Positions 9,508 to 63,300 of a DNA stretch of 64,000 bases are shown piece after piece. This DNA comes from an uncultured bacterium (lineage in GTDB: Bacteria; Verrucomicrobiota; Kiritimatiellia; RFP12; UBA1067): contig CACWJS010000001.1 in the NCBI GenBank assembly GCA_902761275.1, positions 11,477-75,476 on the forward strand, read 5' to 3'. How positions within the stretch are numbered: the first letter of the stretch is position 1; each line of letters opens with the position of its first letter. The translations under genes and the position numbers were made by a program. The notes beneath the pieces are model-generated. The model was given only the letters and a program-made list of their open reading frames with translations, searched no databases and was not told the DNA's origin.

Positions 9508-10811
9508 TATAGCGGTTTCAGGTAGAATGCGTCGTGCGTTATTGCGAAAGCCCAGTCTGCGGGCATGCGTTTGAGTTCGTGTCCGGCTCCCCATGAGTCG
9601 GTGTATAGAATTTCCTTTAGCTCGGTCTTTTTCGTCTTCGGGTCCTTGCCCTCGACATAGCCGATTATTAGCCGTATGTGCCCGCCAGCGACCTGCGGGA
9701 GACCAGGCTCCGGGAACATGCCGAGCGTGACGCCCCAGAAGACGGGAACCCCCTGGTCGACCTGCGCCTTTACGCCAGTCATGAACTTCTTGTAGCGAAA
9801 GTCCTTCATCCTCATCTTCTTCACGACCTTCGGCTTCATCGCCGCAAGTATCTCGCCGACGTTGACAGAATTGCCGCGCATGAAACTGTTGATGGATATC
9901 TCGCTCTCGCCCTCTGATTTCGCCGCCTTGTTGTACTGCTCGATGTCCTTCTCCAAGTCCTCGAAGGAGCTGGTCATCGTCACGATGTCCTGGTAGCCAA
10001 GCCGACACTTCGAGCCGACCGCCTTTACCGCCTCCTTCATGTCCGAGATGGAAGTGCCGCCGCGCGCCGTAGTGCCTGCGGCCTGGGCGATCTCGTGCTC
10101 GTCTATGGTGAAGCCATAGTACCTGAGGACGCGCTCGCTCGTTGCCGCCGCACAGTAGCCCTTCCGCCCCTGGTCGACCATCGGCACGCCGTCTATCCAG
10201 ACGTCGCCGTCGGAATTCTTCTTAACGTGTGCCTTGGTCTTTGTCTTCGAGACGATCCCGCCCGACTTCGCGGACGCCTTTACCTTCGCGCCGCCCTTTG
10301 GGTGCATCGTGACGCGAACGTAGTCTGCGGTCAAATCCTTCTCCTTCACGCCGTCCACTCCCCAGACGAGGTCAATGTCGCAGTCGCCCTTGTTCCACTT
10401 CTTCGAATACTGGTAACCGCCCGTCTTTAGCTTCTTCTTCTCGGGGTTCGCCCCGATCTTCCCGCCCGGCTGCGCCTTCGCGGCAATAGCGTTAAGGAGT
10501 TTTTTGAGTCCTTCCGAATCGAGGCCGACAGAACCCCTGTCGTCGCCACGGTTATAGAGCGACATCTCGACACGTGTCGCACCGTCGGCACCATAGTATA
10601 TCCTCGCCTCCCACACTTCAAGCCCATGCCAAGTGCAGGCACCTCGCTTCATGCAGTTCACGATGTCGCGCTTCTGGCTTGCGAAGCCGAAGCCGTCCTT
10701 CTGGTGGTCTACCGCGAAATCGACGGCAGACTCCTCCCAGGCGTCGGGTTTGGCGAAATGCGTACCAAGATCACACGCTGAAAGCATCAATGGAAGTATC
10801 AGCGCGAGCAT
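9507..10811 (-). CDS. Lipoprotein with C39-like (papain-fold) cysteine peptidase domain
   Basis: Lipobox LMLSAC; catalytic Cys context QGRKGYCAAATSERVLRYYG ... GTS and His GGHIRLIIGY typical of Peptidase_C39_2; stop overlaps tricorn start (TAATG). Confidence 0.65.
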   Translation of the reverse strand: MLALILPLMLSACDLGTHFAKPDAWEESAVDFAVDHQKDGFGFASQKRDIVNCMKRGACTWHGLEVWEARIYYGADGATRVEMSLYNRGDDRGSVGLDSEGLKKLLNAIAAKAQPGGKIGANPEKKKLKTGGYQYSKKWNKGDCDIDLVWGVDGVKEKDLTADYVRVTMHPKGGAKVKASAKSGGIVSKTKTKAHVKKNSDGDVWIDGVPMVDQGRKGYCAAATSERVLRYYGFTIDEHEIAQAAGTTARGGTSISDMKEAVKAVGSKCRLGYQDIVTMTSSFEDLEKDIEQYNKAAKSEGESEISINSFMRGNSVNVGEILAAMKPKVVKKMRMKDFRYKKFMTGVKAQVDQGVPVFWGVTLGMFPEPGLPQVAGGHIRLIIGYVEGKDPKTKKTELKEILYTDSWGAGHELKRMPADWAFAITHDAFYLKPL

Positions 10812-45914: not shown

Positions 45915-48653
45915 TCACCGTATCCTTCCCTCCACCACACCCGGCGAACAGAAGTTGTAGTTGAAGTCGAAGCTTGATGAAAAAACAGCGTGATTGTCGG
46001 TTGGCACGTGGTTCGGCCATAGCCGCCTAACCTTGACGTCCGCATAATCCCACATGTTGGTGGAAAGCGTGGTTGCCGCCGTCACCACTCCAGTGCCGGA
46101 AGCGACAGCCGTCCCTGCGTCCCAACTCATAGACGCCGTTTCGTCGTTGAAGGTGCCAATACCCTGTGCGAGCCACTGCGACACACCCCAAACGCCAAGG
46201 AACTCCGTTCCGTATCCAGCGAGAAAATTGCCAAGCTTCGCCATCCGCATGGGCACTCCGTAGAAAGACGCAACAGCCCCCATCCCTCTGATATCATCAA
46301 CCTGATTGTAGAACCACACGGTCGGACGCGAGACGTTGTCGACTCGTCCGAGATAATCGACAGCACCACCGTTCTTAAACCATCTCTTCCCAAAGCTTGG
46401 CGTCTGCCTTTCAAATCTGCCCGTTCGCGCGTTGAGATTCGACATCGCGGCGGCGTAAAGGGCAAAATCGGCCTCGAACACTCCGCTGACCTCCGCGCCC
46501 GAGAGCGGCAGCACGACGGTCGCGTAGGTATTTGACGAACCGGCGGCCTCGGCCTTGAAGCGGTAGACGCCACCCAGCTTCGGGTTTACGAACCGCGCCG
46601 ACAGACTACCCGAGCCCACTAGCGCACCGCTCATTTGCGGCGTTGCCTCCACTATGCTCCACGACGCTGACAGGCCACTCGTTGAGACACCCGCCGGCTC
46701 AAGCTCGAGAGCCATGTCAATATGGAAGTCCGCGATGCTGAATCCGTTTGTGCCAAGTGTCGCCACATTCTCAAACGGAACCACGAGATGCTTGTCGGGC
46801 GACGGGCTGTTTGTCACCGCGAATGGATAGTCCACTCCAGTCAGGAACGGCGGGGGATTCGTGCTCACGCCGGCGACAGCCGAGCTGACGTTCATCTGCT
46901 TGACACGCGCAACCGTCATGGATCGCATGACGGTACGTGCATCATCGCCCTGCAATGCAAGTTCGCATTCAAACACCACATCGCCGACACTCTCGCTTAG
47001 CTCCTCGCCCTCGACAAAGATTGTCGTGCCGCTCTGAATCGCCGCGCTCCATGCCATCGGCAGCGTCACTGAATGCGTCTTGTTGGTGTCCGCCCAAAGC
47101 GCGACCTTCCCAGATCCCGCCGTGCAACGCAGCGTCACGGTGCCTGATGGCTCTCCGCAGGGGCTATAGCCAACCGACAGGACGCCCATGTCGCCGTGAA
47201 GCATAACCACTGGCGAGACAGACATCCCAAGCCACGCCTCGGGATGCTCCTTGTTATATTCCTGGCATTCACAGCCCTGCTCCCACAGGAAACTCTGCGT
47301 GTATCCCTCCCATGTCGCCGCCGCGTCAAGACCGACATGCGAGAACCCGCCACACGAGCAATTCGGGTCGCACGTCCAGGTCAGCGACACGCCGTCAAAC
47401 ACCGCCTGGCAGCATCCGCCGGTGAAGCACGAAATTGACGCACCTACGTATGGCAAAGTATAAAGGACAAGGTTTGGCGCAGTTCCTGTGAAGCCAAGCT
47501 CAACCTGCCTCTGCACATAGAAATCTGAGCCCTGCGCGGCACCGCCCCTCCTAAGAGGCATCGACGTCGTTATCTCCGCAGCTGCGTCGCTCGTCGCCAC
47601 GTCAGACAGCGGACCATTTGCCGCCACGTGGTAGCGTGGCCCCATCAGAAGCGGGACCCGACATACCTGATTTGAGTTCGCGATCACCACCATGTCCCCG
47701 AGATTGCTCTCGCCCTCGCAGTCTATCGTAACGCGCGTGGCGTCGGATAGCGCCGAAAACTCAAGCCAATAGTACGCGGCCGCGCACACATTTGTGTGCC
47801 ATGCCACGACGGGCTCGCCGTTGATGCCGGCACTTGCCGACAGCACCGCGCCGCAGTTTGCGTTCAGCCAATCCGCCCCAGTCCCGAAACAGTCGCCGCC
47901 ATATACGGTCGGCTCAGGGTCTATGGTGTTGTCAAGACCATCGCCATCCCAGTCGTTAGGGTCGATCCTCCTGTAGACATTCGCGGCATCGTTCAACCAC
48001 GTCTCAAAGTCGCCGCCACGACGAAGCACAATCTGCAGGTTCACGCTGTCGTTGGTGTCGGCATTTGGAAAGACGTTCTCCCATCCGACAATCCGCTCGT
48101 CGCCATCTCCTGGAGCCCACCAGATGCGGCTCTCCCCCTGTACTGCGACGACGTTGCTCGCACCAGACGATATCTCGCCCGAAGGGTTGCGCGGGCTCAT
48201 CCTGATTCGGCCGTCGTGGAACCACCAGATCGACGAATACGAAGTGTCGTTCGACCCGAACGGAAACGACCATTCCCCGAAGTCGAGCCGATTGCGGCCA
48301 AAGCCCGACGCCGCTCCGCGCATATGCGCGTTGCCGAGATAGACGGCATTGGTCGGCATAGCGAAGGAATGCCCCGCGTCATTGGTCACATACCCAAGCC
48401 GGTAGCCACGCGCGATCTCCTCCTGCGTCACCATCGCGGGAAGCCCCACAAGCTGACGCATCAGTGCCCTCGTCGTAGAGTTCGTCTTGTCCGCCTCGAC
48501 CGCCGCGATGATGGCAAACGACAAGAAAAGGACCAGCAATTCCCTCGGCAGACTCTTTAGCCGTTCAAATCCACAGACCAGTGGCTTCAGCAAAAGCATG
48601 CCGCAGAAAACCACTGCGGCGCATATCCCGACAACATTCCAGTCGATGCGCAT
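45915..48653 (-). CDS. Giant secreted Cys-rich protein, paralog A (TSP3-like DxDxDG Ca-binding motif)
   Basis: 912 aa; N-terminal hydrophobic anchor; DPNDWDGDGLDNTIDPEP; Cys module CFTGGCCQAV...CDPNCSCGG; shares sequence along most of its length with 50258-52930. Confidence 0.6.
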   Translation of the reverse strand: MRIDWNVVGICAAVVFCGMLLLKPLVCGFERLKSLPRELLVLFLSFAIIAAVEADKTNSTTRALMRQLVGLPAMVTQEEIARGYRLGYVTNDAGHSFAMPTNAVYLGNAHMRGAASGFGRNRLDFGEWSFPFGSNDTSYSSIWWFHDGRIRMSPRNPSGEISSGASNVVAVQGESRIWWAPGDGDERIVGWENVFPNADTNDSVNLQIVLRRGGDFETWLNDAANVYRRIDPNDWDGDGLDNTIDPEPTVYGGDCFGTGADWLNANCGAVLSASAGINGEPVVAWHTNVCAAAYYWLEFSALSDATRVTIDCEGESNLGDMVVIANSNQVCRVPLLMGPRYHVAANGPLSDVATSDAAAEITTSMPLRRGGAAQGSDFYVQRQVELGFTGTAPNLVLYTLPYVGASISCFTGGCCQAVFDGVSLTWTCDPNCSCGGFSHVGLDAAATWEGYTQSFLWEQGCECQEYNKEHPEAWLGMSVSPVVMLHGDMGVLSVGYSPCGEPSGTVTLRCTAGSGKVALWADTNKTHSVTLPMAWSAAIQSGTTIFVEGEELSESVGDVVFECELALQGDDARTVMRSMTVARVKQMNVSSAVAGVSTNPPPFLTGVDYPFAVTNSPSPDKHLVVPFENVATLGTNGFSIADFHIDMALELEPAGVSTSGLSASWSIVEATPQMSGALVGSGSLSARFVNPKLGGVYRFKAEAAGSSNTYATVVLPLSGAEVSGVFEADFALYAAAMSNLNARTGRFERQTPSFGKRWFKNGGAVDYLGRVDNVSRPTVWFYNQVDDIRGMGAVASFYGVPMRMAKLGNFLAGYGTEFLGVWGVSQWLAQGIGTFNDETASMSWDAGTAVASGTGVVTAATTLSTNMWDYADVKVRRLWPNHVPTDNHAVFSSSFDFNYNFCSPGVVEGRIR

Positions 48654-48666
48654 GTTGCCCTCCGCA

Positions 48667-49161
48667 CTATCTGATGGTTATGTCAAACCGCTTGTTTAGA
48701 ACCGTCTCTACAATCGTCTCTCCGACTGTCCCCGCGCCTCGCTTCACGACTTTGGCCATGTTCCATGCTGGGTCGAAGCTGCGCCAACCGACGACAACCG
48801 TTTCGCCGACAGTGTCGTCCACTGTGCCGGAAACGTAGTCCACAAGATACCGCTCCCCGCAATCGCAGCCGAAAACGAATGCCGTCTCTTCAAACGAAAG
48901 ATCGCCGTTCCCGTCGGCATCGCAGCCAATTGCGACAAGCACCTCGTTTGAGACACAGTTCCCCGCGTCCAGAGTCAGACCGAATTCCCGCACTCTCTCG
49001 GCCTTGACGTGCAGCGGGAGATTTGTCGACACCTCTGTATTCGGCATAACGCCGTCAGGAAGCTGCGGCAGCGGATATTCCGCAGCCGCGCAGACCGTCG
49101 GCGCAAGGTGCGCGGCGACGGCAAAAAGCGTCGTCAAAAGAATCTTCTTCATCCCCTGCAC
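48667..49161 (-). CDS. Small secreted Cys-containing protein (hypothetical), driven by repeat-borne promoter
   Basis: Signal peptide MKKILLTTLFAVAAHLAPTVCAAAEY; 164 aa. Confidence 0.55.
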   Translation of the reverse strand: MQGMKKILLTTLFAVAAHLAPTVCAAAEYPLPQLPDGVMPNTEVSTNLPLHVKAERVREFGLTLDAGNCVSNEVLVAIGCDADGNGDLSFEETAFVFGCDCGERYLVDYVSGTVDDTVGETVVVGWRSFDPAWNMAKVVKRGAGTVGETIVETVLNKRFDITIR

Positions 49162-49287
49162 ACTCCTTTCTCCTGAGAAGGCGCCGACAGTATACCATCA
49201 AAGAGGGGATGTCAACTTATCGTAAACTTTTCGTTTGCGGGAAAAACGACGCAGGAGTTATCGTCTGCGATAACTTCATGGCACACG
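49120..49287 (-). promoter_or_regulatory. Promoter/5'-UTR/signal-peptide-start cassette, direct-repeat copy 1
   Basis: Minus strand: TTGACA ...(15) TATACT, ~36-nt leader with AAGGAG, ATG; ~85% identical to 55379-55541. Confidence 0.65.
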
Positions 49288-50257: not shown

Positions 50258-52930
50258 TCAATGCACCCATTGAATGGTTTTGCCGTCTACTATAATCCGG
50301 CAGAATCGACCGCGCGACATGGTATGCCCGTGTTTCTCGATCGATGCCGTTCCATCGTCGGAAATGGAAAAAATTTGCTGATATGCGTCTTGTTTCCCGC
50401 CTATCAACAAGATTCGTGATAAATTGTCATTGTCAGCATTGATCTCATGCTCTGCCTCACGAACCCCGTGCCTGTCGTCGCCGTCAAACCGCATTCTGAC
50501 CCACCCTATGGGGATGTCCCAAACGAGACGTCCAGCGGACCAATTCTCATATTCCAAGGGATGTCCGGCTCTATCAACTGTCCAATAGTTATTTGTCGCT
50601 ATTCGAGTCGCCATGCCCCAACCGTAGTCAAATATACGCCAGTGCGTCCATTGCCCAGTGTAGTTTGTCGTTGCAAAATAACCAGATGGCATATTGGTGT
50701 GAGTGCATGGGATCTCGGACACCATGATTCCGTGGAACGACACGTTCATCGGGCCGACATAGTTCGTAATCGCAAGCAAAGTTCCCCCGACTGATCCCGG
50801 AGAACGACAAGGCGCATAGTATGAATCCCAGAAAGCATTTGGGCTTATTATTTCCTTCGGCTCGACAATTGTCATCTCAGGCCTATACTCAGCCTCGCGG
50901 CACACGACTTTCAGATTTGGCGTCACCGAGTAGATTGGGCACGCATATATTTTCCCCGCAGAATCTATGATATTGTCATAATGATACAGCTCGTTTGTAT
51001 CAATGCGCGTCAGCTGAACACTTGTCGCCACACTTTCGGGGAAACTGCGAAACTGAACCCGTTCCCCTACGCCATAGACATGGCGGTTGGTGCATGGGTT
51101 TTCGGGTGCTTCCCAGACCGCGGCGAGTTCCACGCGAACAGACGTGGCATGGCAGTCGTTTGTAATCGACTCTCCAGTGACATTGTCGGTCAGCGTAGCG
51201 ATAACCTCGATGTCGTCAGCCGTATCGCTCGCCGACAGCCCCACGTAGTTCATTGCATACGTTATCGACTGCCTTGCCGGAACAGACACCGACTGCGAGG
51301 GGAAGGCAGGACCCGAGTTCTTCTGTAACTTGCCAAGGTTCGTCGCGGACACGGACAGCACGGCGCCATTAGTTCCGCCGTTGGCACTGATAGTCAGCAT
51401 CGTCGCCGTCGAGCGCCGCGAAACCCACTCGCCAGGCGAGTTTTCGTATCCATCCTCGAATATGACCGCATCCTTGCTGAAATTGGCAGAGACAGATGCC
51501 GCATACGGAGCGGCCGATGGTGTCGGCGTTGGGTCTGGCGCATCTTCCCAGCATCCACACGAGGCATAACCAATGAACAACTTGGAATACCCTTCCCACA
51601 GCGCAGTCGTTTCAAAACTATGATACACTCCTCCGCAAGTACACGTCAAGGAACACGACCACTGCAATATACCGTCAACAACCTCCCGCGAGCAACACCC
51701 TCCGAGACAGGCGATAATCGAGGGGCGTACATTAATCGGCGAAGATGCCGCGCCATAGTTGCCTGTAGACCCTGCGCTTCTCGTCTGTATTCGCACCAGG
51801 GAAAGTTCCAAAGGCAAAGAAACGGTCAGGCGATTCTCGGCGTTCGTCACGATCTCCGCGTATTCGCTCGACACGGCAGAGTAGTCAATCGGCAAGTCGC
51901 TTTCGACTGTGTATGTCGCGCCAGCGAGAAGCGGGACGTGGCAGACTTGGTTTGTCCGCGCAATGATCACATGGTCGCCAAGGTCGCTCGCTCCATCGCA
52001 AGTGACGCGGATCGTCGCAACTCCGAGAACCCCTGTCACCGAAAGATCAAGCAAGTAGTAGGCATCGGGGTTCGCGTTTGGCGGCAAGGCATTTGCCACG
52101 CCAAAGAAATCTCCGTCGCAGCTTGTAGGATTCGCATCTCGCTCGTTATGGATTCCGTCATCATCCCAATCGTCGGGGTTGACGCGGCGGCAGACTGTCT
52201 CGACCTCGTTCGAACGCGTTACGAAGTCGCCGTTGGGAGAAAGGACGATCTGCGCATTTACGGGGCTGTTCGTGTCGCCGTCGAGGAAGAAGTTTTCCCA
52301 TGTTAGAACGCGGCTGCCATCATCGCCATCAAGCTGCCAGAACTGGCTTTGGCCTGGAACAGCAAACATCGGGACGCCGACAGCGCAGATTTCGTGCGCA
52401 GCATCTCGCGGAGTTGGGCGAATGCGACCATCGATGAAATACCAAAACGATGAAAACGCCTCGTCGTTCGTGCCGAGCGGGAATGCCCAATCGCCAAAAT
52501 CAATCCTGTTGTTTCCAAACGACGATGTCGCGCCGTGGATGTGCCAGTTCCCGACAAGCGCTGCGTTCGTCGGCATCGCATACGAAACCGCCGCGTTAGT
52601 CGTGACGCTCTCCACTCGCCAACCGCGAGAAATGTCATCAATAGTCGCCTGGACAGGATTCACAAGGTTTATAAGATTACCAATCCCTAACAATCCTGTC
52701 AATCCTGTCTGAAAAGAAGGCCCCTGCATCATCTGCGGCTGATTCATATTCGGCGGCACATTGTTCGTCTTCTGCGCATCGAGCGACGTGCCGACGGCGA
52801 GAAGCGAAAGCGCGAGGAGTAGCGAAGCCGACAGTCTGCGAAGTGCACGAACATTGATACGAACAAGGAACGCGAATATGCAGACGCACTCGGCAACGAC
52901 AAAGCAACTCCCAAGGAAATGCCAGTTCAT
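50258..52930 (-). CDS. Giant secreted Cys-rich protein, paralog B
   Basis: 890 aa; NPDDWDDDGIHNERDANP; Cys module CLGGCCSREV...CSLTCTCGG; collinear with paralog A. Confidence 0.6.
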   Translation of the reverse strand: MNWHFLGSCFVVAECVCIFAFLVRINVRALRRLSASLLLALSLLAVGTSLDAQKTNNVPPNMNQPQMMQGPSFQTGLTGLLGIGNLINLVNPVQATIDDISRGWRVESVTTNAAVSYAMPTNAALVGNWHIHGATSSFGNNRIDFGDWAFPLGTNDEAFSSFWYFIDGRIRPTPRDAAHEICAVGVPMFAVPGQSQFWQLDGDDGSRVLTWENFFLDGDTNSPVNAQIVLSPNGDFVTRSNEVETVCRRVNPDDWDDDGIHNERDANPTSCDGDFFGVANALPPNANPDAYYLLDLSVTGVLGVATIRVTCDGASDLGDHVIIARTNQVCHVPLLAGATYTVESDLPIDYSAVSSEYAEIVTNAENRLTVSLPLELSLVRIQTRSAGSTGNYGAASSPINVRPSIIACLGGCCSREVVDGILQWSCSLTCTCGGVYHSFETTALWEGYSKLFIGYASCGCWEDAPDPTPTPSAAPYAASVSANFSKDAVIFEDGYENSPGEWVSRRSTATMLTISANGGTNGAVLSVSATNLGKLQKNSGPAFPSQSVSVPARQSITYAMNYVGLSASDTADDIEVIATLTDNVTGESITNDCHATSVRVELAAVWEAPENPCTNRHVYGVGERVQFRSFPESVATSVQLTRIDTNELYHYDNIIDSAGKIYACPIYSVTPNLKVVCREAEYRPEMTIVEPKEIISPNAFWDSYYAPCRSPGSVGGTLLAITNYVGPMNVSFHGIMVSEIPCTHTNMPSGYFATTNYTGQWTHWRIFDYGWGMATRIATNNYWTVDRAGHPLEYENWSAGRLVWDIPIGWVRMRFDGDDRHGVREAEHEINADNDNLSRILLIGGKQDAYQQIFSISDDGTASIEKHGHTMSRGRFCRIIVDGKTIQWVH

Positions 52931-53028
52931 CGCCGTGCTACCTTACAAACCCCGCATCCGCTGACACAACAAATGAGACAGACATCGAACACAAAACATT
53001 AATCCGACCCAAAAGAGCCGCCTTTCTC

Positions 53029-55257
53029 TCATAAAGCAACATGCCACCCACTAATGTCATCATAGAGTTCTTGCAATGATCTTATTGACATGTCCACCAA
53101 CGGTTCGTACATAAATGAATTCAAATGTATTTGCTCAGGCGTCATTAAAGAAACCTTATTCAAAATAGTGCGTTCTGCTTCCGTGCCAAGATTCTGCGAG
53201 CGAAACGACTTAAACAACTTCCCAAATCGACTCCGGCCACTTACACGAGGCTGGCCCCTCTCTATTAGCATTGCTTCCATAAAGGACTCTGCCATTAAGC
53301 GTATAGTCATTGCAAGAACTACCTTGTTCTCAAGTTTGATTTCGTCAAGCTGCCCTTGTCCCAGCTCTTCTGATATTCGCCTAGCCTCGGCGAACAATAT
53401 GTCAACCCACGGCATATCCATATTCGGCCAAAACAGGTCTATATTCGAAATCCGCGGCAATGTTTTGAGATAAACATTTTTGACTTCACTTGCAAGCACT
53501 GACCTTGTAATCCGCAGCATGGGGTCTTCATGCTTGATGTCATGCAAGCATGATGTTAGAAGCAAATAATCTGAGGAACTATCGCCTTGGATATACTCTA
53601 TTAGATTACGGACAAATGGCAGCATAGCCAACAATATTCTATTAGTGGGGTTCGCAATCCAAGTTTGGAGAAGATTTCTTAAGAAGTGCCCTCCCGACAG
53701 TTTTATCTCCCTGGTTAATGGATCCTTTGTAGCCATAAATACATTCTGCGCTCTTTTCAAGCCTAGCCGGGAACATACTGTCCTGTAAAAATCTAGATTG
53801 TGAGTTAATATAATCGTACGAACCATGGAGTTCATACTTAAGTCCTGAATATATTCAATAATGGCATATTTGTTTTTATAGTCAAATGAATCAGCCACAT
53901 CATCAAAGATTAAAAGCAATGGACTCGTTTTGCGCACTTCAATTTCAAACAGAATCTGCAACAAACAAAACGCCCTACGCTCCCCCTTGCTTAACACGTC
54001 GCCCAATAAAGCGTCCGAAGTGCGCTCGACAGGGACTGCATTATTAGAATCATCGCAGTAATAAAACTTCAGCTTGGCATCTTCATGATTAACAAGAACA
54101 TTCTGCTGATTCTCAATCTCAACTTTAAATGGAGCATGAAATCTGTCATTAAATAAATCAATGATGTGTCTCCATATGGCCTGCTCTTGTCCCGCGCGAT
54201 TTAGAATATTCCGGAGCGTAGACTTTCTTTGTCTGTACAAATCAATCAATTGTCGATATGATTCTGCGACCCTTCGCAAATAAGAATACCAAACCTTCTT
54301 GCGAAAAGCATCATAATCCAAAAGATCAACAAGGTACTCGTTGTGTGCGAATATTGCCGCCTTAAAAGCCCTTAATTCCTTATTTTTCCCAATAGCGCCA
54401 TCAATCTTATCAAAGACTCTCCTAACAGCGGGCTCGTTGACCACTCGCGCTAATTCTCCATCGTATTTACTCTTGAACTCTTCGTATGTATTTAGATTAA
54501 CGCCACTATCTAATGTAATTTTATGTCCAACCTTGAAAAAAGAATTATCCTTTAAACTCTTCGAAATTGCATCTGCCTGCTCCGTACCAAATACAACATT
54601 GCCGACGACCTTAAAGAAATCCGACTGAGTCAAAACATTATTGTACTCCCTAAAATACTCCTCTATGCTCTGCCGATGTTTTTGAAGGAACTCACGGACT
54701 TTACCGCCTCTATCAAAAATATCGTTATACTTAAAAGAGTATTCGGGGGGAGCAACGTCGTCAATTCCATCAAATATGCGCTCTAAAATCTCTAAATCTG
54801 TCTCTTGACTATTAACAGCAAATGCCTCTCTCAATTCAACACTACAGTCAGAACTTTGCGAAACAGTTTTTAACTCGCCAAAAAATCGATCTAGCGCAGC
54901 ACTCAATTCTTGATATACAGCATCATATTCACGCTTCAATTCTTCGCTGGCAAGAAATGCGGAAACACTCTTTTCAGCAGAAACAAAATTCTCCGGGTCA
55001 ACAACATATACACTTTCAGGGGCAAGAGCCGCACCATTCCCTTCACGAAAAATTGCCACGCTTTCCCTATCCGGATAAACCAAATCGCCAGGAGCAAGCC
55101 CACGAGCATATGCCTGGAACGTCTTGGTTAATGATGTTTTCATTGTCCCGTTAGGCGCATAGACAACAGAATATGGGCAATCCGACGTAAACTCAAACTC
55201 ATGTTCAAGTTTGCCAATCCCATAACAGTTTTCTATTTGCATTTTTATTTTCGACAT
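53029..55257 (-). CDS. AT-rich island ATPase: split ABC/SMC-type (AAA_15/AAA_21-like) N-domain with degenerate Walker A plus ~260-aa unassigned C-terminal domain (candidate single-gene defence system)
   Basis: N-term KMQIENCYGIGKLEHEFEF...VVYAPNGTMKTSL (Walker A with Gly to Met); Walker B-like LLLIFDDVADSFD; H-loop-like TIILTHNLDF; long helical insert between; low-GC codon usage. Confidence 0.6.
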   Translation of the reverse strand: MSKIKMQIENCYGIGKLEHEFEFTSDCPYSVVYAPNGTMKTSLTKTFQAYARGLAPGDLVYPDRESVAIFREGNGAALAPESVYVVDPENFVSAEKSVSAFLASEELKREYDAVYQELSAALDRFFGELKTVSQSSDCSVELREAFAVNSQETDLEILERIFDGIDDVAPPEYSFKYNDIFDRGGKVREFLQKHRQSIEEYFREYNNVLTQSDFFKVVGNVVFGTEQADAISKSLKDNSFFKVGHKITLDSGVNLNTYEEFKSKYDGELARVVNEPAVRRVFDKIDGAIGKNKELRAFKAAIFAHNEYLVDLLDYDAFRKKVWYSYLRRVAESYRQLIDLYRQRKSTLRNILNRAGQEQAIWRHIIDLFNDRFHAPFKVEIENQQNVLVNHEDAKLKFYYCDDSNNAVPVERTSDALLGDVLSKGERRAFCLLQILFEIEVRKTSPLLLIFDDVADSFDYKNKYAIIEYIQDLSMNSMVRTIILTHNLDFYRTVCSRLGLKRAQNVFMATKDPLTREIKLSGGHFLRNLLQTWIANPTNRILLAMLPFVRNLIEYIQGDSSSDYLLLTSCLHDIKHEDPMLRITRSVLASEVKNVYLKTLPRISNIDLFWPNMDMPWVDILFAEARRISEELGQGQLDEIKLENKVVLAMTIRLMAESFMEAMLIERGQPRVSGRSRFGKLFKSFRSQNLGTEAERTILNKVSLMTPEQIHLNSFMYEPLVDMSIRSLQELYDDISGWHVAL

Positions 55258-55293
55258 TACTTGATTCCTTTCCCTGTTGATAACTTCTTTCCA

Positions 55294-55410
55294 TTATGGA
55301 ACACATTGCCATTGTTGAAGCCCAACGCCTCGCGACAATTCAAGGAGACATTCGCAATTATTATATTTTGTTGTCGTCGGCAAAAGCGTCGTCAAAAGCA
55401 TCTTATTCAT
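55294..55410 (-). pseudogene. Remnant 38-codon ORF carrying the first ~9 codons of the 48667-49161 paralog (MNKMLLTTL...)
   Basis: Sits in direct-repeat copy 2; homology to MKKILLTTLFAVAA stops after ~9 aa; followed by the AT-rich ATPase gene. Confidence 0.35.
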
Positions 55411-55541
55411 CCCCTGCACACTCCTTTCCTGAGAAGTCGCTGACAGTATACCATCAACGAGGGGATGTCAACTTATCGTTAGCTTTTCTGTTACGAGAAA
55501 AACGACTCAGAAGTTATCGAATAAGATAACTCCGTGGCATA
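55379..55541 (-). promoter_or_regulatory. Promoter/5'-UTR cassette, direct-repeat copy 2
   Basis: Same TTGACA/TATACT promoter and leader as copy 1; now upstream of remnant ORF plus ATPase gene. Confidence 0.65.
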
Positions 55542-55572
55542 TAACGGCGGCGATAACTTGCCAAGTCACCAA

Positions 55573-56685
55573 CTACCAAAGATGCAGCATTGTTATGAGG
55601 ATAAGAACACCGAGGAGTGCAAAGACGAGGCCAATCGCGATCTTCGCGGGGATCACGTTGCGCGACGACCATTTCGCCATCTGGAATGCGTCGGTCGTCT
55701 TCGAGGCGAGGACGAACACGGCGACAAGCGGAAAGACGAACGCAAGATTGTAGAGCGCGAGCAGAGCGAAGGAACGCCATGCCCCAGGCTCGCGAGATAT
55801 GAGTGCGAGGACAGGCACGTAGACCTGCCCCGTGCAGAGTGCGTCGAGCAGCGTCACGAGGAAGGCGCAACCGAATCCTGCGAGGACAACCGCCGGGCCG
55901 CTCCAGCTCTCCATCGCAATCTTACGTATCAGCACCTTCACCCCCTCCGGCAGCTTCAGAGTCACGACGGAGAAGACGGGTATTTTGCGGAAGCGCAGCG
56001 CATCGCGGAAACTCAGGAACGACAGTACGAAAAGCGAGAGCGCAAGAAGGGCCATCACTACGTCGTGGACTACGCGGAGCCCTTCTAACACCTTCAAGGC
56101 CTGCATGAGCCCAAGGCCCATCAGCATGTATGTGACGAACGTTCCGGCGCAGAAAGAAAGTCCGCCGAGGATTCGCGCCTTGCGCTTGCGCCCGCCGATG
56201 GCGAGGATTCCGGCAAGGGAAATCATGATCGCAAAGGAACAGGGGTTGAATCCGTCGACGATTCCCGCGAGGACGACGGTCGGAAGTGTCCAGCGCGACG
56301 CAGCGGCGGCGGTCTTCGACTCGACGGCCATTCCAGTAACGGGAATGTTTATCACGGGGCTTTCTGGGTCGTCGCAAAGAATCTGGACGTGCTTGGAGAA
56401 CTCGCCTGGGAGCATGGCCTTGAGCGCAACCGAGAGTGTCGCAGAAGACGACGGTGCGATGCACATAGCCGACAGCACGGCGTCAGTGCCGCAGCAGCCC
56501 TTAACCTGCGAGACGGCGACGGGCGAGGACGAGGCGTTGCGTATCTCGACCGACTTCGTCGCCGCCTCCCCCGCGGCTATCTCGCCGAACGCCACGCCCT
56601 CCGGCGGAACGGCAAGGCGAGGCGCGGAGAGGGCGGAGAGAATCGGGAGACAACATAGACAACAGAAAACAACTATTCTTCTCAT
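55573..56685 (-). CDS. DUF1573 (ASPM-like beta-sandwich) fused to CcdA/DsbD-family thiol:disulfide transmembrane domain
   Basis: Signal peptide; KSVEIRNASSSPVAVSQVKGCCGTDAVL (DUF1573-like); TM domain with GFNPCSF and LDALCTGQ Cys pair typical of CcdA/DsbD. Confidence 0.7.
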   Translation of the reverse strand: MRRIVVFCCLCCLPILSALSAPRLAVPPEGVAFGEIAAGEAATKSVEIRNASSSPVAVSQVKGCCGTDAVLSAMCIAPSSSATLSVALKAMLPGEFSKHVQILCDDPESPVINIPVTGMAVESKTAAAASRWTLPTVVLAGIVDGFNPCSFAIMISLAGILAIGGRKRKARILGGLSFCAGTFVTYMLMGLGLMQALKVLEGLRVVHDVVMALLALSLFVLSFLSFRDALRFRKIPVFSVVTLKLPEGVKVLIRKIAMESWSGPAVVLAGFGCAFLVTLLDALCTGQVYVPVLALISREPGAWRSFALLALYNLAFVFPLVAVFVLASKTTDAFQMAKWSSRNVIPAKIAIGLVFALLGVLILITMLHLW

Positions 56686-57815: not shown

Positions 57816-58244
57816 TCAATCTGTAGTCCATATTCCTCTTGCATTTTCATAGTGAAGGTCATATCCTTTGAATGGGAAGGATCTTGGTCTATGCTCTTTC
57901 ATTATTCCAGAGTAAGAAGTTTTTCTTGAAAACCGATACTCGTCAAAAGAAATCCATGCTTCTGATAACACAACCCCAAGAAATATTACCAGCAGGATCT
58001 TGGATGCGGCGAAATCGAAAATACCAGCGCATGACGATTGCTTTACCGCAATGCGGACAAAGCACAACAGGACAGACACTGTAAACACAACGCCAGTTGC
58101 AAGCACGACGCCGACCAATGCGCCTCGCATGCTAAAGCCAATAATCTCCGTCATGCATCTCCCTTCTCCATACATTTTGAATGTCACCAATAAAATGACA
58201 ATCTGCAACATACTTCTTAATAGATTTCCGCAATTATCTGACAT
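57816..58244 (-). CDS. Putative immunity protein for the RHS C-terminal toxin (small membrane protein)
   Basis: Start MSDNCGN at 58244 overlaps RHS stop (58234-58236) by 11 nt; 2-3 TM helices; AT-rich like the RHS tail. Confidence 0.45.
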   Translation of the reverse strand: MSDNCGNLLRSMLQIVILLVTFKMYGEGRCMTEIIGFSMRGALVGVVLATGVVFTVSVLLCFVRIAVKQSSCAGIFDFAASKILLVIFLGVVLSEAWISFDEYRFSRKTSYSGIMKEHRPRSFPFKGYDLHYENARGIWTTD

Positions 58245-61200
58245 ATGGAGGCTCCTCTCCACCTCGTGGTTCCTTAGGGGGGCCACCAAATTCGCCAGGA
58301 GGGACTATATATGGAGGTTGTTTCCCTATTCCTGATGCTATGTGATTAACACATGTTTCCATTGAATAATAGTTAACCGCACACTTTATTTTCACACAAG
58401 TACTTCCATCAACTTTGTATGTGGTGCCGCCAATGACAAAGCCATCAACAAGAAGCCATTTCCCTGCCAGTCCTCCGTATGCCGGGTTGCTGTATTCGTC
58501 AATTATCCAAATCCGCAACAATCCTTTGCAACTGTTATCAATGAAGAGTTTTCCTCTACCAAATTTGAAGCAACATTGGCATAAAGCTAGTCCCAAAAGG
58601 TCGAAATTACCTATAGGATTATTACCAGCAAATGCAATTTTCTGGACTACTTTTTCCCCCGAGGCTGAATCTCCACTGAGCAATTGGTCAAATATTGGAT
58701 CTAAAGACAGCCAACGCCCAGTAGCCATATGGAAATGCCGAAAATTGAAGTATAATAAACCCAAAGGGCAATCACTATATTCAGAACTGAAACGCCAAGG
58801 ATTACAATCGCCATCAATCATCCTAATGCACGTTCCAAATGGAGCATAATCGTAATGATACATATTTTTTGACGCCACCTCAGACACATTCTTATTCCCA
58901 TCATGAAAATAATACGATGCGCTTGCATTGTTCCGCCACACAAGCGGACGTGTCGCGACTGGTTCCGTCGGGTCCCACACATAGACATTTCCGTTGTTGT
59001 CGGCAATCTGAAGATAGCCCGCACAGGTGAAGAACTGTGAGTTTTTAACCACCCTGCGCCCCATACGATCGTATGACATGACGATGTTCGTGTCACCATT
59101 CGACCACTGAACGGGGCGGTTCTCGCCGTTATATATGACAGACCAGATGCCATTATCTGCTTTGATTAGGGTTTGATTGCCGTCATCGTCGTATTGTGGA
59201 CCGAAAACAGCATTTTCATTTGCAACAACACTGGTATTCGATATTAGCGTATACTGGTTCAGACAGTTGGCAACATATTCTGTGCGATTCGTGGCTTCCA
59301 ACGACCACAAACGATTGCCTATACAATCATATTTGTAGACATATTGATAATTCCTATCTACTGACACGACGGCGTTAGTCAATTCACCTCGGATGTTGTA
59401 GCCATACGAAATGACCTCTTCCTGTTCAAATGAGGAACCTGAGTGCGAGCATGAAACACACCTTCTCGTCGCACCGTAAGTATAATCGTACCGTGAAATC
59501 ACATTCGTTGGCGTGGTGTTGCAAACTTGAAGCAGCTGGTTGTTGGCATCGTATTGCCATGACGCGGTCATGCCATTGGGGTATGCGAGCAGGGATTTCA
59601 AATCTGAACCGGGAAGATACGACCACACAAATGGGGTCTCAGAACCGGCGGCAAGCATAGACGCAATACGCCCTGTTGCGTGATCATAACCTATCACAGT
59701 CTGCCATTCACCATTGAACGCATAGCCAGCATCGCGGCCGAAGTTATCCCAATGGCGAATGATTGTATTGGTTCCGGCCACGCCAATGACGGTTTCGTTG
59801 GTGAGAGAACCGAAAGAGTCGTAGAGGAAGGTGGTTGTGCCTGCGGCGTCGTGAGCTTCGGTCTGGCGGCCAATGGCATCGTATACGAGAGAAACCGTGG
59901 GTGTATTGTCAGAGTAGACTGTGTTAGTGAGGCTGCCCCATTCGTCATAGGAGTAGTCTGTGACGATGCCGCGAGCCCAGATGCGCTGAGAGAGTTTGCC
60001 GTCGGGAATGTAGGTGTAGGATGGACCCTTGCCGTCGGCGTATACCTTGTTCGTCATCGCGCCGGAGGCGATGTCGTAGAGCCAGGTGGTGACATCACCT
60101 GAATTGGGGCCGAGCGATTCGTTTCGGTACGTCATCATGGTCGCCTTATTACCGAAGATGTCGTAAGTGTAGCGCACGGGATAAGTCGCACCGCCTTCGT
60201 ATGTCTTACGGCCGCGAAGGTCGTATTCGTAGACCGTAGCGTTGCCAAGAGGATCGGTGACGGAGGCAAGATTTCCAAACTGGTCGTAGGCATAGGATGT
60301 ACGATTACCAAGCGCATCAATGGAAGCAGAGCGCTGGCCGAGGGCGTTGTACTCGGTGTGGCGTGTGTTGCCACGTCCGTCGGTATTTGCAATCTGGCGA
60401 CCGAGGGAGTCGTATGCGACTGTGTTGGTTACGGCAGAAACAGACACATCCATCAGCGAGACGCCGTAGCGAGAAATCGAAAGCGGCTTGTTGGTCGCGT
60501 AGGGAAGCGTCTGACGCGAAGCGACAAAAGGCGAAGAAACCAACATTTCGTTTTCTGTCATGTTGCCGCGAATATCGGTGGAGCGGGAACGCGCGGGAGT
60601 GGCGGCGGATAGGCCGGTAAGCTGTTGCGCAGAAGAGGTGACGAGTGGCGCGATGGCTGAGTCGGAGCAGGAGACGATGTTGGTTTGGGTGAGCCAAACG
60701 AAGGAGTCGGAGAAAACGAAAGAAGAACGCGTTTCGGTTTTGCGCCATTCAGACGGGCAAGCAGGGGCGCTTGCCCCTACCAAGCGCGTCGTCGCGATAC
60801 GGTTGCCGAGCGTGTCGTAGGTGTACTCGGTAGTCGGCTCGTAGTCGGCAGAGGTGGAGACGAGGCGACCGTAAGAGTCGTAGGCGTGAGTGGTGGCGAG
60901 AACAGCACCTCGGAAGCCGGAGCGTTCTTCACAAAGGGTCTGGCCAAGCATGTTCTCGTAGCGCTTGGTGAAGCGAGGCGAAGAAGCAGTTTCGCCCTGC
61001 ACGATGCGATACCAGCGAGTTCCGTCTGACAACATACCGGAGGTGTGGAACTCGGGAGTGATGGCGGTGCCGGTGATAGAGAGATTGTCTCCGGACGCGG
61101 AGCGAGAATAAACGACCGTCGAAGTGTTGGGGTGTTGGACGAACACGGTTCGCCCGTCTGGACTGTAGGTCGTCGTTGTTGTGTTGCTGAGAGTGTCGAT

Positions 61201-63300
61201 GCGGGAGATGGTGCGGCCGAGTTGGTCGTAGCGCGTGCGGGTTGCTGGCAGGCCGACATGAGCAGCGTAATTGGTTTGCCAAGTGGCAGTCTGGCGGCCG
61301 AGGGCGTCATAACGATAGCAGGTCGTGAGCCACGTGACATTGGTCATATCGAGCGGAATCAAGCGCGAAAAGGCGATCACGCGGCCTTCGTCGTCGTAGT
61401 CCCAGGTCGTGGTCGAGCCGTCGGGCTGAACTTCCGAAACCTTATGGCAACAGTCCCACGCCGTGGTCGTGACCTGACCGGCGAGGTTTTCGGATGTGAT
61501 GCGCTTGCCCTCGAAGTTGTATGTCATGCGGTTTCTAGCTATAGTATACCATATTCCGTCGATGTACGCCTCGGTACGCGTTTCGATTTCCTCGCCGCGA
61601 GCATTGGTAATCGTGATGTCGCGGGTCGTCTTGCCAGAGACGGGCGCGGGGGACTGCTCGTGAAGGTGGGTGACGGTGCGAACCCAAATGTTGGATGAAA
61701 GCTCATAATCGTAGAGGTCGAGCTTGCCATCCTCGTGGCGGATGGAGGCGACAAAGCCGGAGCGGGCGTCGTTCGCAACTACAGGGTAGAACGCCGTCAC
61801 CGTGCGGAGAACGTTGGTGCCGCCGTAGGCCGCGCCCTGCTCGCCAACCCGCTCGACGATGTTGGTAAAAGGCAGATAGGCATAGTATGTGCGCTCGCAT
61901 TCGATGCCGTCGAGCTTCTTCACGACCGTGCGCGGGCGGGTGTCGACGGGGAGCGCCGGGTCGCTCGGATCGACGGGGGTGTAGTCGTAGGTAGTCGTCT
62001 CGGTCATCATATCAGGACCGGAACGCGTCTCTGAGGTCACACGGTCAAGGTTGTCGTAGGCGTACTGTATGAGCAATCCCGACTGGCGCTTTTCAGTCTT
62101 GACCTGCCCCTTGCCGTTGCCGGAAGTGTAGTATGTCCAAGTCGTAGTGTCGGTTACGCCGCCGAAGCCCTCCACGCGGTTCGTCATCGCAAAGCCCCAT
62201 GACTCCCACTTGTAGTTGGACTCGCGCCGCGCGAGCACGGCTCCGCCGGGCGACCTCGTCGTGCTGACGATCTGCGCCGCCCGCTCGTCCTGCGTGTAGC
62301 GCCCCTTCTCCACCCTGACGCCAGAGGGCCTGGTCAGCGACCACTCCCCGAGGGCGTAGTCGAACTGGTACGTCTCGGGTTCGCCGCCGCCGCTCTGGAT
62401 CGTGACGACGGCCCGCTTCCCGCCGTTGCCGGAGCGGAGTGAAAGACGCCTGACTGGGCTGGACTGCGGTAGGGCGTACAGCCCCGTCGCGGCGTCCTTC
62501 GCCGGCGGCTCCTGCAGCGCGTAGACCGCGACGTCGTAGCCGGAGAAGCCGGCGGCAGGCGTCACGTCGGCAAGGCGCGAAGGCGTCAGGAACTGGCGAA
62601 CGCCGTTGGAGTCGTAGACTATCTCGACGCCCATGTCGGCCGGGGTGACGGTTCTGCCGCGCGCGTCGGTGACGGAGACGAGCGCCCCGAGCGCCCCAGT
62701 CGCGTTCGTCGCGAGGAACCGGCGGCGGGTGCCGTCGCCGACGTAGAGGTCGTAGTAGACCGGGCCAGACGCAGTCGCCCAGCCCTCCGCGTCGACCATC
62801 TGGAGCCGCTCGTCCATCTTGACGTGGACGCCCGGATCGGGCCTCCCGAGGGACTCGCCGTTCGCGAAGACGAAGTGGACGGGCTCGCCGTTCGGGTGGG
62901 AGAAGACGACCTCCGCCGGCGTCGCCCCGTCCGGCATCGTCTTCTGCCCGAGCCGCTTGAAGGTGTAGCCGCCGAGGACGGCGTAGAGTGACTCCGGCGT
63001 GAATACCGACGGCGAGCCGCCGTCCGCGAACACCTTGAGCGAACACTCGAGCGAGCCGGTCCACGGCGTCGTCACGCCGAGGCCGAGCCATGCCTTTATG
63101 CACCCGTTGTCGACGCCACTGTCGCCACCAACGGGGCATCCGCAGGTGTTGTTGGCCGGGTTGCACTCGGAAGGCGGATTAGCCTGCGTGGTTGCCCCAC
63201 CGAGGAGCACCGCCGGCAGAAGCGCCAACGCCAACGCGGCAAAGCCGACATGAACCCACGACTTCTTCGTCCGATCTGCGGCCACTTTGGAATTTTTCAT
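58234..63300 (-). CDS. RHS/YD-repeat polymorphic toxin with short Cys-rich C-terminal toxin domain
   Basis: 1688 aa; signal peptide; dozens of YD repeats (YDALGR, YEYDLRGRK, YTYDIFGNK, RYDYTYG); RHS core (YYFHDGNKNVSEV...YAPFG...NPWRFSSEY...YFNFRHFHMATGRWLSLDP) ending NNPIGNFDLLGL (NPxxxxDxxGL cleavage-type motif); ~115-aa variable tail. Confidence 0.9.
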   Translation of the reverse strand: MKNSKVAADRTKKSWVHVGFAALALALLPAVLLGGATTQANPPSECNPANNTCGCPVGGDSGVDNGCIKAWLGLGVTTPWTGSLECSLKVFADGGSPSVFTPESLYAVLGGYTFKRLGQKTMPDGATPAEVVFSHPNGEPVHFVFANGESLGRPDPGVHVKMDERLQMVDAEGWATASGPVYYDLYVGDGTRRRFLATNATGALGALVSVTDARGRTVTPADMGVEIVYDSNGVRQFLTPSRLADVTPAAGFSGYDVAVYALQEPPAKDAATGLYALPQSSPVRRLSLRSGNGGKRAVVTIQSGGGEPETYQFDYALGEWSLTRPSGVRVEKGRYTQDERAAQIVSTTRSPGGAVLARRESNYKWESWGFAMTNRVEGFGGVTDTTTWTYYTSGNGKGQVKTEKRQSGLLIQYAYDNLDRVTSETRSGPDMMTETTTYDYTPVDPSDPALPVDTRPRTVVKKLDGIECERTYYAYLPFTNIVERVGEQGAAYGGTNVLRTVTAFYPVVANDARSGFVASIRHEDGKLDLYDYELSSNIWVRTVTHLHEQSPAPVSGKTTRDITITNARGEEIETRTEAYIDGIWYTIARNRMTYNFEGKRITSENLAGQVTTTAWDCCHKVSEVQPDGSTTTWDYDDEGRVIAFSRLIPLDMTNVTWLTTCYRYDALGRQTATWQTNYAAHVGLPATRTRYDQLGRTISRIDTLSNTTTTTYSPDGRTVFVQHPNTSTVVYSRSASGDNLSITGTAITPEFHTSGMLSDGTRWYRIVQGETASSPRFTKRYENMLGQTLCEERSGFRGAVLATTHAYDSYGRLVSTSADYEPTTEYTYDTLGNRIATTRLVGASAPACPSEWRKTETRSSFVFSDSFVWLTQTNIVSCSDSAIAPLVTSSAQQLTGLSAATPARSRSTDIRGNMTENEMLVSSPFVASRQTLPYATNKPLSISRYGVSLMDVSVSAVTNTVAYDSLGRQIANTDGRGNTRHTEYNALGQRSASIDALGNRTSYAYDQFGNLASVTDPLGNATVYEYDLRGRKTYEGGATYPVRYTYDIFGNKATMMTYRNESLGPNSGDVTTWLYDIASGAMTNKVYADGKGPSYTYIPDGKLSQRIWARGIVTDYSYDEWGSLTNTVYSDNTPTVSLVYDAIGRQTEAHDAAGTTTFLYDSFGSLTNETVIGVAGTNTIIRHWDNFGRDAGYAFNGEWQTVIGYDHATGRIASMLAAGSETPFVWSYLPGSDLKSLLAYPNGMTASWQYDANNQLLQVCNTTPTNVISRYDYTYGATRRCVSCSHSGSSFEQEEVISYGYNIRGELTNAVVSVDRNYQYVYKYDCIGNRLWSLEATNRTEYVANCLNQYTLISNTSVVANENAVFGPQYDDDGNQTLIKADNGIWSVIYNGENRPVQWSNGDTNIVMSYDRMGRRVVKNSQFFTCAGYLQIADNNGNVYVWDPTEPVATRPLVWRNNASASYYFHDGNKNVSEVASKNMYHYDYAPFGTCIRMIDGDCNPWRFSSEYSDCPLGLLYFNFRHFHMATGRWLSLDPIFDQLLSGDSASGEKVVQKIAFAGNNPIGNFDLLGLALCQCCFKFGRGKLFIDNSCKGLLRIWIIDEYSNPAYGGLAGKWLLVDGFVIGGTTYKVDGSTCVKIKCAVNYYSMETCVNHIASGIGKQPPYIVPPGEFGGPPKEPRGGEEPPYVR

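Follow-up and report, generated by a model that had tools for sequence, protein, structure and literature searches.

The 64,000-nucleotide stretch of DNA analysed here (the window; positions 11,477 to 75,476 of contig CACWJS010000001.1, assembly GCA_902761275.1, from an uncultured bacterium of the Kiritimatiellia) carries an AT-rich gene that stands apart from its neighbours, and it raises the question of what this gene encodes and how it came to lie there. In the window's list of open reading frames (ORFs), the gene starts with ATG, lies at 53029..55257 on the minus strand and encodes 742 amino acids (aa), exactly where the initial annotation of this DNA had placed it. That annotation, made from the letters alone, described a foreign single-gene defence system, possibly of an undescribed type, consisting of a split ABC/SMC-type ATPase with a mutated Walker A and an unassigned C-terminal domain. 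Our analysis assigns the product to the PADLOC candidate family PDC-S46, and profile comparison suggests that this family probably belongs to the PrrC/RloC superfamily as a distant relative of PrrC. That the protein is a conflict or defence ATPase of one kind or another is very probable. By analogy with PrrC and RloC, we lean, somewhat more than evenly, towards an autonomous ATPase-regulated ribonuclease of their type, carried as a horizontally acquired one-gene cassette and acting by abortive infection.

PADLOC, run on the window, matched the protein over its full length to PDC-S46 (model PDLC05023; 729 bits, E 1.6e-219), with residues 1-736 aligned to positions 1-716 of the 719-position profile, and no sequence-level difference separates it from the other members. 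The prediction of a single-gene defence family was thus borne out, while that of an undescribed type was not, as PDC-S46 has been catalogued as a PADLOC candidate since 2023 and is otherwise uncharacterised. It is reported that PDCs are genes repeatedly embedded in RM, BREX, DISARM and Hma loci, which were found by 'guilt-by-embedding', and that 145 of them were untested (10.1101/2024.01.29.577857). In the literature searched, PDC-S46 is not mentioned by name, and we found no phenotype, mechanism or domain description for it. Weak matches confined to the ATPase were obtained with the PADLOC models of PDC-S06, AbiLi, mad3 and AriA, and a full-length match was obtained with PHROG 38705 (E 3e-117), whose function is unassigned in PHROG. 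More than 2267 homologues were found by a word-indexed search. A profile of the C-terminal domain recovered at least 1259 clusters at 50% identity from 1.84 billion representatives, and among the 150 of its matches that were listed there was no architecture other than ATPase plus C-terminal domain. The taxonomy of the family is wide and patchy, with Bacteroidota dominant. The 27 plasmids that carry full-length homologues come from Proteobacteria, Firmicutes, Actinobacteria, Spirochaetes and other groups, and members from the Planctomycetes-Verrucomicrobia-Chlamydiae (PVC) group are also known; occurrence in phages and viruses is rare, with a single match in 50,697 phage records and 13 in 2.9 million viral contigs.

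The split ABC/SMC-type ATPase was confirmed by Pfam AAA_13, which matched residues 266-504 with 41 bits against a gathering cut-off of 36, and by Foldseek, in which the full-length model gave the heads of SMC, cohesin, condensin and Rad50 as top matches and also matched PtuA in the retron Ec83/Eco7 complexes. All of the Walker A, Walker B/D-loop and H-loop motifs that had been quoted are present, as is the long helical insert between them. This insert of about 280 aa was modelled by AlphaFold2 (AF2) as a globular multi-helix domain, mostly alpha with small beta-hairpins, and it holds conserved motifs specific to the family (SQSxDCExE, FxYNDxFD, FGTxQA and AGH). The invariant residues of the C-lobe are S423, G425, E426, D452, D453, D456, F458, D459, H486 and N487, and those of the Walker A are Y33, A34, N36, G37, K40 and S42. 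All 119 homologues of at least 39% identity have Met at position 39; in members of other phyla with 30-39% identity this residue is sometimes Leu (two divergent members) and never Gly, and no aligned homologue, even at 30% identity, departs from the pattern YAPNGx[M/L]K[TS]S. Because Met or Leu stands here family-wide, the P-loop Met is a fixed variant of the family and not a lesion of this copy. The Gly-to-Met replacement noticed at first is therefore real, but the P-loop is not degenerate, since the other catalytic motifs are invariant. An obligatory Met or Leu in place of the phosphate-contacting Gly might mean that the nucleotide is bound or sensed in an unusual way.

These observations also bear on the idea that the transferred gene is decaying and has lost its function. 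The unusual P-loop, the want of a recognisable promoter of its own and the rearranged region beside a gene remnant would suit this idea, but the frame is intact over the full length of the family and all family-invariant residues are kept. Moreover, four independent metagenome contigs encode an identical protein beside an identical flanking gene, and the ATPase gene is under strong purifying selection. Against a 73%-identical homologue, the nonsynonymous distance (dN) is 0.18 with the synonymous distance (dS) saturated, which makes the whole-gene ratio not computable; omega is about 0.06 in the two sub-regions where it could be computed. Decay is effectively excluded and is the least credible of the explanations considered here.

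A close mechanistic comparison was provided by PrrC (Pfam AAA_13), a bacterial anticodon nuclease that halts phage infection by a 'suicide' attack on tRNA. In EcoPrrC, the reported ATPase motifs are a Walker A of AxxGxGKT, LSKGE173, YVFIDD216PVSSLD222 and KFIITTH251, with YVFIDDPVSSLD as the Walker B/D-loop, and mutagenesis demonstrated that H295, R320, N321, E324, R349, N352 and H356 are essential for the nuclease (PMC3025547). For the comparison, 68 full-length PrrC ORFs were taken from metagenome contigs by a DNA-level scan, and as a positive control a recovered PrrC ORF matched the PADLOC PrrC model at 3e-150. The window protein did not match this model (PDLC02360) at E <= 1. When the PDC-S46 family was aligned with the PrrC alignment in hhalign, the probability was 83% and P was 9.3e-6, with collinear alignment of query 18-625 to template 9-363. 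Tests restricted to regions were each paired with a reversed-sequence control. The ATPase region gave P 6.3e-6 (control 0.27), and the 102 columns from Walker B to the RNxxE helix gave 1.2e-4 (control 0.17). The segment after the H-loop taken alone gave a modest 0.006 (control 0.39), and residues 600-742 against the PrrC tail gave no signal (0.086, control 0.16).

The alignment pairs liYApnGtMKt of the family with LIYAFNGTGKT of PrrC in the Walker A, DDiaDsFD with DDPVSSLD in the D-loop, and iiLTHnfDFYrtv with FIITTHNPLFYNVL in the H-loop, and the next beta-hairpin is also paired. Both hhalign and hmmsearch placed pFVRNliEy opposite LLRNLY-E. This residue-level alignment suggests that R550-N551-x-x-E554 of the window protein corresponds to the essential R320-N321-x-x-E324 of PrrC. 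In the reverse direction, a PrrC ORF matched the PADLOC PDC-S46 model over residues 216-367 (E 2.4e-5). The PDC-S06 models (PDLC04886-04898, profiles of 693-862 positions) matched PrrC at 6.6e-18, including its nuclease domain, and the window protein at 6.5e-14 over residues 420-576. As both match it, PDC-S06 bridges PrrC and PDC-S46, and this further PADLOC candidate may be an RloC-like family that links the two.

The window protein and PrrC thus share an Ala-type Walker A, an identical LSKGE, a DD Walker B, an S-x-D D-loop, a TH H-loop, the collinear post-H-loop beta-hairpin and R-N-x-x-E helix, and a single polypeptide with the regulator N-terminal and the effector C-terminal. They differ in length (742 aa against about 375-400 aa), in the 280-aa ATPase insert of the window protein, in the P-loop residue (Met/Leu against Gly) and in about 190 extra C-terminal residues without similarity to PrrC. 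The R349...N352...H356 of PrrC (its HEPN Rx6H) has no alignable counterpart, as the 'PRISNID' at the aligned position of the window protein is not conserved in the family, and no hsd gene lies within the 64-kb window.

The C-terminal domain had been called unassigned. Sequence searches with it were indeed empty in Pfam (22 members), in the PDB by phmmer and profile, and in NCBIfam, but it is not wholly unassignable, since its first part is collinear with PrrC through R-N-x-x-E and its whole fold is predicted to be HEPN-like. In the AF2 model, two beta-hairpins precede an all-alpha part with the four-helix up-and-down core of the HEPN fold. Based on this model, the domain is HEPN-like, and it is the putative nuclease effector. 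R550, N551 and E554 are invariant or nearly so across the family, K645 is invariant, and H572 is invariant in 119 of 119 homologues and in the divergent members. As the aligned PrrC position is not His, H572 is specific to PDC-S46. The pattern R653-X3-E657-X49-57-H711 is also invariant, with an E-to-H spacing of 49-52 in 91 of 119 homologues and of 53 in this copy; the predicted local distance difference test score (pLDDT) of the model is below 50 at domain residues 207-210. A pattern search for the HEPN motif Rx4-6H found only REFLQKH (188) and RTIILTH (480, the H-loop), both outside the C-terminal domain. No Arg stands 4-6 residues before H711, so the canonical motif is missing there; position -5 is an invariant Thr. 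The HD-phosphohydrolase and TOPRIM assignments were rejected, as the domain is all-alpha, has no HD doublet and gave negligible fold probabilities, and TOPRIM gave no Pfam match.

Compared with the known HEPN RNases (HepT, RnlA/LsoA, Csm6, ApeA, HepS and the AF0298 family), the domain lacks Rx4-6H, gives modest scores, is roughly double a minimal HEPN in size and has extra helices and an N-terminal beta-hairpin pair. The main rival explanation accepts a defence or conflict ATPase and takes the C-terminal domain to be a non-catalytic HEPN-like sensor or nucleic-acid-binding domain, as in MtlR or the kanamycin nucleotidyltransferase C-domain. The output would then be NTP consumption, DNA clamping by the SMC-like head or recruitment of a host factor in trans. 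We consider this explanation rather unlikely. For the ribonuclease reading, we suggest that the domain is most likely a metal-independent endoribonuclease, whose active site would be formed by R550, N551 and E554 together with one or both of the invariant His residues.

RloC, a wobble-nucleotide-excising tRNase, is the second relative of interest. Its nuclease pattern is reported as R-X3-E-X36-52-H (PMC2610378). The R653/E657/H711 pattern of the window protein, R-X(3)-E-X(49-57)-H, resembles it when compared with this published definition. The two are alike in their size class of about 700-850 aa, in the ABC head split by a long helical insert and in rare linkage to restriction-modification (R-M) genes, and one UniRef cluster that contains a family member bears the RloC name. 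On the other hand, no CxxC zinc hook was found anywhere in the 742-aa protein, and its insert is predicted to be globular and helical, whereas that of RloC is a long antiparallel coiled coil. By analogy, the gene product would act most like PrrC and RloC, yet it is a member of neither family. PrrC and RloC, which had been named at the outset together with OLD, Gabija GajA, Septu PtuA and PARIS AriA, were the right neighbourhood, while the likeness to the others is limited to the generic core. With OLD, GajA, PARIS AriA/AriB and Septu/retron PtuA-PtuB, the protein shares an ABC/SMC-like head as the sensor, and it lacks their TOPRIM, HNH or partner gene. Identity with DARNA/PD-T7-3 was rejected because the architecture is different.

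The foreign origin of the gene was indicated by its composition. The GC content of the ORF is 0.409 and that at third codon positions (GC3) is 0.404, while the window has a GC content of 0.580 and the neighbouring genes have a GC3 of 0.58-0.74; the ORF is 17 points below the genome. With a GC content of 0.410, the inserted segment of 2362 nucleotides (nt) ranks within the bottom 0.16% of sliding windows of its own size (mean 0.579, sd 0.053), and only two more patches of the window, at 43.0-45.3 kb and 57.8-59.2 kb, are comparably AT-rich. The gene is also AT-richer than its flanks in every genome checked.

A related Kiritimatiellia genome, RUG14463 (locus L030), provided an empty site. The gene order there is the same as in the window (a fragment of the flanking 370-aa gene g370, a homologue of the 890-aa gene g890, then g274, g164 and g912), but the ATPase gene is absent and the junction is uninterrupted: '...GGGCTTCAACAATGG/TAAGGTAG...ATGAACTGG', with the slash marking the insertion point. 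In the window, the two halves of this sequence stop at 55309 and restart at 52946/52945 in unambiguous junction alignments, from which the insert is 52947-55308. The island of 52931-55545 first proposed is thus AT-rich as described, but its limits were too wide, and the extra upstream DNA is a host repeat. The lone foreign gene of that proposal held up in its low GC, the empty site in RUG14463 and the lack of a recurring partner gene. At the island, searches for a target-site duplication, terminal inverted repeats, a tRNA, an integrase and Rfam elements all came back empty. The flanking g370 (55573-56685) is 86-93% identical to its copies in related Kiritimatiellia metagenome-assembled genomes (MAGs) from rumen and gut metagenomes, which places the host in the Kiritimatiellia (PVC group), and the ATPase gene is missing downstream of g370 in all the other related loci recovered. 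In other relatives, an RHS toxin gene comes next after g370, which suggests that this position is a variable hotspot.

The initial annotation had named clear orthology to a housekeeping SMC, RecN, SbcC or RecF protein, with conserved synteny and native-like GC, as one finding that would overturn it. A housekeeping DNA-repair ATPase of this kind is suggested by the Foldseek matches to SMC, cohesin, condensin and Rad50 heads and by a weak match to Pfam SMC_N. This match is, however, below threshold (27 bits against a cut-off of 40); NCBIfam gave nothing near a cut-off, with recF at 22 bits against 172. There is no synteny, as the gene is absent at the orthologous site of the relative and downstream of g370 in the other related loci, the GC is far below that of the genome, and the taxonomy is patchy and includes plasmids. 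The housekeeping explanation is thus effectively excluded.

The neighbourhoods of homologues were also compared. No recurring partner gene was found across 16 sampled contexts, and the flanking genes differ in each. A conserved small downstream partner was rejected, as the ORFs of 87, 96, 91, 187 and 112 aa are mutually unrelated and none is in the window. In 7 of 15 sampled neighbourhoods there are R-M or other defence-type genes (a qualitative tally): one homologue, P0103, lies between HsdM_N and T1RH-like_C fragments, and the others are accompanied by HSDR_N; by an hsdM fragment and an antirestriction gene; by an AbaSI-family endonuclease and XerS; by an Eco57I-type R-M system, ArdC and SIR2-TPR inside an integrase/TraG island; by SIR2-STAND, a DpnII/MboI endonuclease and a MORC-like ATPase; or by Mrr-STAND. 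Two neighbourhoods were ambiguous (a 1635-aa helicase-nuclease with an insertion sequence element, and a 1211-aa AAA protein), and the remaining ones held nothing relevant. The window copy lies between genes for a DUF1573 membrane protein and an unannotated 890-aa secreted protein, neither of which has a PADLOC match. It is not embedded in a defence locus, while some homologues are; embedding is how the PDCs were discovered and is not required of each copy.

The same neighbourhoods bear on a role in competition or maintenance of mobile elements (plasmid or integrative and conjugative element (ICE) exclusion, anti-conjugation or an addiction-type toxin) and not in phage defence. The occurrence on 27 plasmids and in many phyla, the several copies near type IV secretion/tra genes, recombinases and antirestriction genes, the copy in an ICE-like island with integrases and TraG, and the location of the window copy in a region rich in RHS polymorphic toxins speak for such a role. 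Homologues are, however, mostly chromosomal, their neighbours are unrelated save for the frequent R-M and defence genes, and the family was discovered by embedding inside defence systems. We consider this role improbable; in mechanism it is compatible with the ribonuclease reading, as the same enzyme would merely act against another element.

The 73%-identical homologue (L033 8850-12965 / L035 198-4511) lies in a segment of about 3.5 kb that is enclosed by direct repeats of a g164-like gene (166 nt, 90% identical), with an 83-aa WYL_2-domain ORF before the homologue and an overlapping 87-aa ORF after it. As this homologue is also amid g164-like sequences, the association with g164-type genes recurs in a second lineage, and the nucleotide homology to the window is limited to the ORF. 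A 104-aa ORF upstream of the L035 homologue was considered as a RhuM fragment, which Pfam did not back.

Taken together, the ribonuclease reading suggests a mechanism modelled on PrrC and RloC, in which four points are inferred: that the protein cuts RNA, which RNA it cuts, what triggers it and that it acts in defence. The ABC-type NTPase heads would dimerise head-to-tail on nucleotide, and the NTPase/insert module would hold the nuclease silent, with the family-specific insert as the likely sensor. After a cue tied to infection, which may be damaged DNA or DNA ends, a change in the nucleotide pool or a lost partner, the activated and paired C-terminal domains would cut tRNA or another RNA of translation, so that translation halts and the infection is aborted. 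A more far-reaching proposal, which we put forward only tentatively, is that PDC-S46 might be a distinct and widespread branch of PrrC/RloC ribotoxins in which both halves were rebuilt: the ATPase with an obligatory Met/Leu P-loop, and an enlarged HEPN-derived nuclease that lost Rx4-6H and would use R-N-x-x-E with His572 and/or His711, possibly with a new RNA target and trigger.

Four results are new here: the demonstrated relationship to PrrC, the assignment of the C-terminal domain as HEPN-like, the deviant P-loop throughout the family and the insertion site at base-pair resolution. The system is not of a wholly new kind. Its ATPase-HEPN logic is familiar to specialists. If the mechanism is true, a large PADLOC candidate family from Bacteroidota, Proteobacteria, Firmicutes, Actinobacteria, Spirochaetes, PVC bacteria, plasmids and occasional phages gains a concrete function, and a PrrC-like ATPase-gated ribonuclease would work as a single gene, with no need of an R-M partner of the kind that keeps PrrC silent. 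The invariant replacement of Gly by Met/Leu in the P-loop offers a handle on nucleotide binding and discrimination by ABC heads in immune sensors, and a non-canonical HEPN-like site would widen the sequence rules for recognising HEPN RNases. The locus also records an exact insertion of one gene, polymorphic between related genomes, in a rumen phylum that has been studied little. The features of the locus are collected in Table 1.

Table 1. Coordinates of the inserted gene, its protein features and the adjoining host sequences in the window
Feature	Position	Strand	Remark
Inserted AT-rich segment	52947..55308	.	2362 nt, +/-1; 51 nt + 2229-nt ORF + 82 nt
ORF, stop codon included	53029..55257	-	PDC-S46-family ABC ATPase with predicted C-terminal HEPN-like domain
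ATPase N-lobe, residues 1-95	54973..55257	-	contains the deviant Walker A
Walker A YAPNGTMKTS, residues 33-42	55132-55161	-	aligns to PrrC LIYAFNGTGKT
Helical insert, residues 96-375	54133..54972	-	AF2 secondary structure, pLDDT 67-91
ATPase C-lobe, residues 376-505	53743..54132	-	signature, Walker B/D-loop, H-loop; AAA_13
Signature LSKGE, residues 422-426	53980-53994	-	
Walker B/D-loop LLLIFDDVADSFD, residues 447-459	53881-53919	-	
H-loop IILTHN (IILTHNLDF 482-490)	53797-53814	-	
C-terminal domain, residues 506-742 (237 aa)	53032..53742	-	two beta-hairpins, then all-alpha HEPN-like domain (predicted)
R550-N551-L-I-E554 (motif PFVRNxxEY)	53596..53610	-	aligned with PrrC R320-N321-x-x-E324
H572 (motif LTSCLH), 18 residues past E554	53542..53544	-	candidate catalytic His
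R653-L-M-A-E657, invariant R-x3-E, long helix 642-666	53287..53301	-	
T706-P-E-Q-I-H711-L-N713	53119..53142	-	within invariant LMTPExIHxNxFMYEPLxD block; low-confidence loop
Host repeat copy, upstream of insert	55382..55539	-	160 nt; 85-96% identical to 49124-49283
Hairpin with T-run, terminator-like, in host repeat	55509-55533	-	sequence reading
Promoter-like TTGACA-N15-TATACT in host repeat	55471-55466, 55450-55445	-	sequence reading
38-codon remnant ORF (MNKMLLTTLL...) of g164-type gene	55294..55410	-	spans upstream insertion junction

Upstream of the insert lies a host repeat, of which the copy at 49124-49283 is upstream of the gene 48667-49161 and a further copy is upstream of g164 in RUG14463. 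Besides the terminator-like and promoter-like elements of Table 1, the repeat holds a Shine-Dalgarno-like sequence and the first ~10 codons of a g164-type, lipoprotein-like gene. The consensus promoter scan did not report the promoter-like element because its spacer is 15 nt. From these elements, the host repeat probably supplies transcription into the ATPase gene and on into the 890-aa gene. The repeat resembles a reusable terminator/promoter/5' cassette for operons of the g164/g890 type.

The matching remnant of a g164-type gene is also found in RUG14463 as far as '...CAACAATGG', without the ATPase, which shows that the remnant is older than the insertion. The possibility that the island replaced the body of a g164 paralogue was rejected for the same reason. 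The window holds paralogous cassettes at 45915-48653, 50258-52930 and 48667-49161, all on the minus strand, in which a small lipoprotein-like gene is followed by a secreted protein of about 900 aa without a Pfam domain. Compared with their counterparts in RUG14463, g912 and g164 are 93-94% identical and g890 is just 49% identical, suggesting that g890 is hypervariable. In the L030 locus (9624-10088), g370 is reduced to a C-terminal fragment of 108 codons and the repeat lacks its 144-nt promoter part, while a complete g370 is present elsewhere in this MAG, on a different contig (L005). This points to local rearrangement or duplication in that genome.

The surroundings of the island also contain other variable genes. 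At 57816-63300 on the minus strand, a 1688-aa RHS-repeat protein has an AT-rich C-terminal tip and is followed by a 157-aa ORF without a family match; the two are probably a toxin tip and its immunity protein. As RHS genes directly follow g370 in related Kiritimatiellia, the region appears to be a hotspot of polymorphic toxins. A second foreign-looking AT-rich gene at 43421-45328 on the minus strand (GC 0.396 against 0.58 for the window) encodes 635 aa and has no match in Pfam, PADLOC or NCBIfam; its product includes a coiled-coil-like region and ends in a hydrophobic tail.

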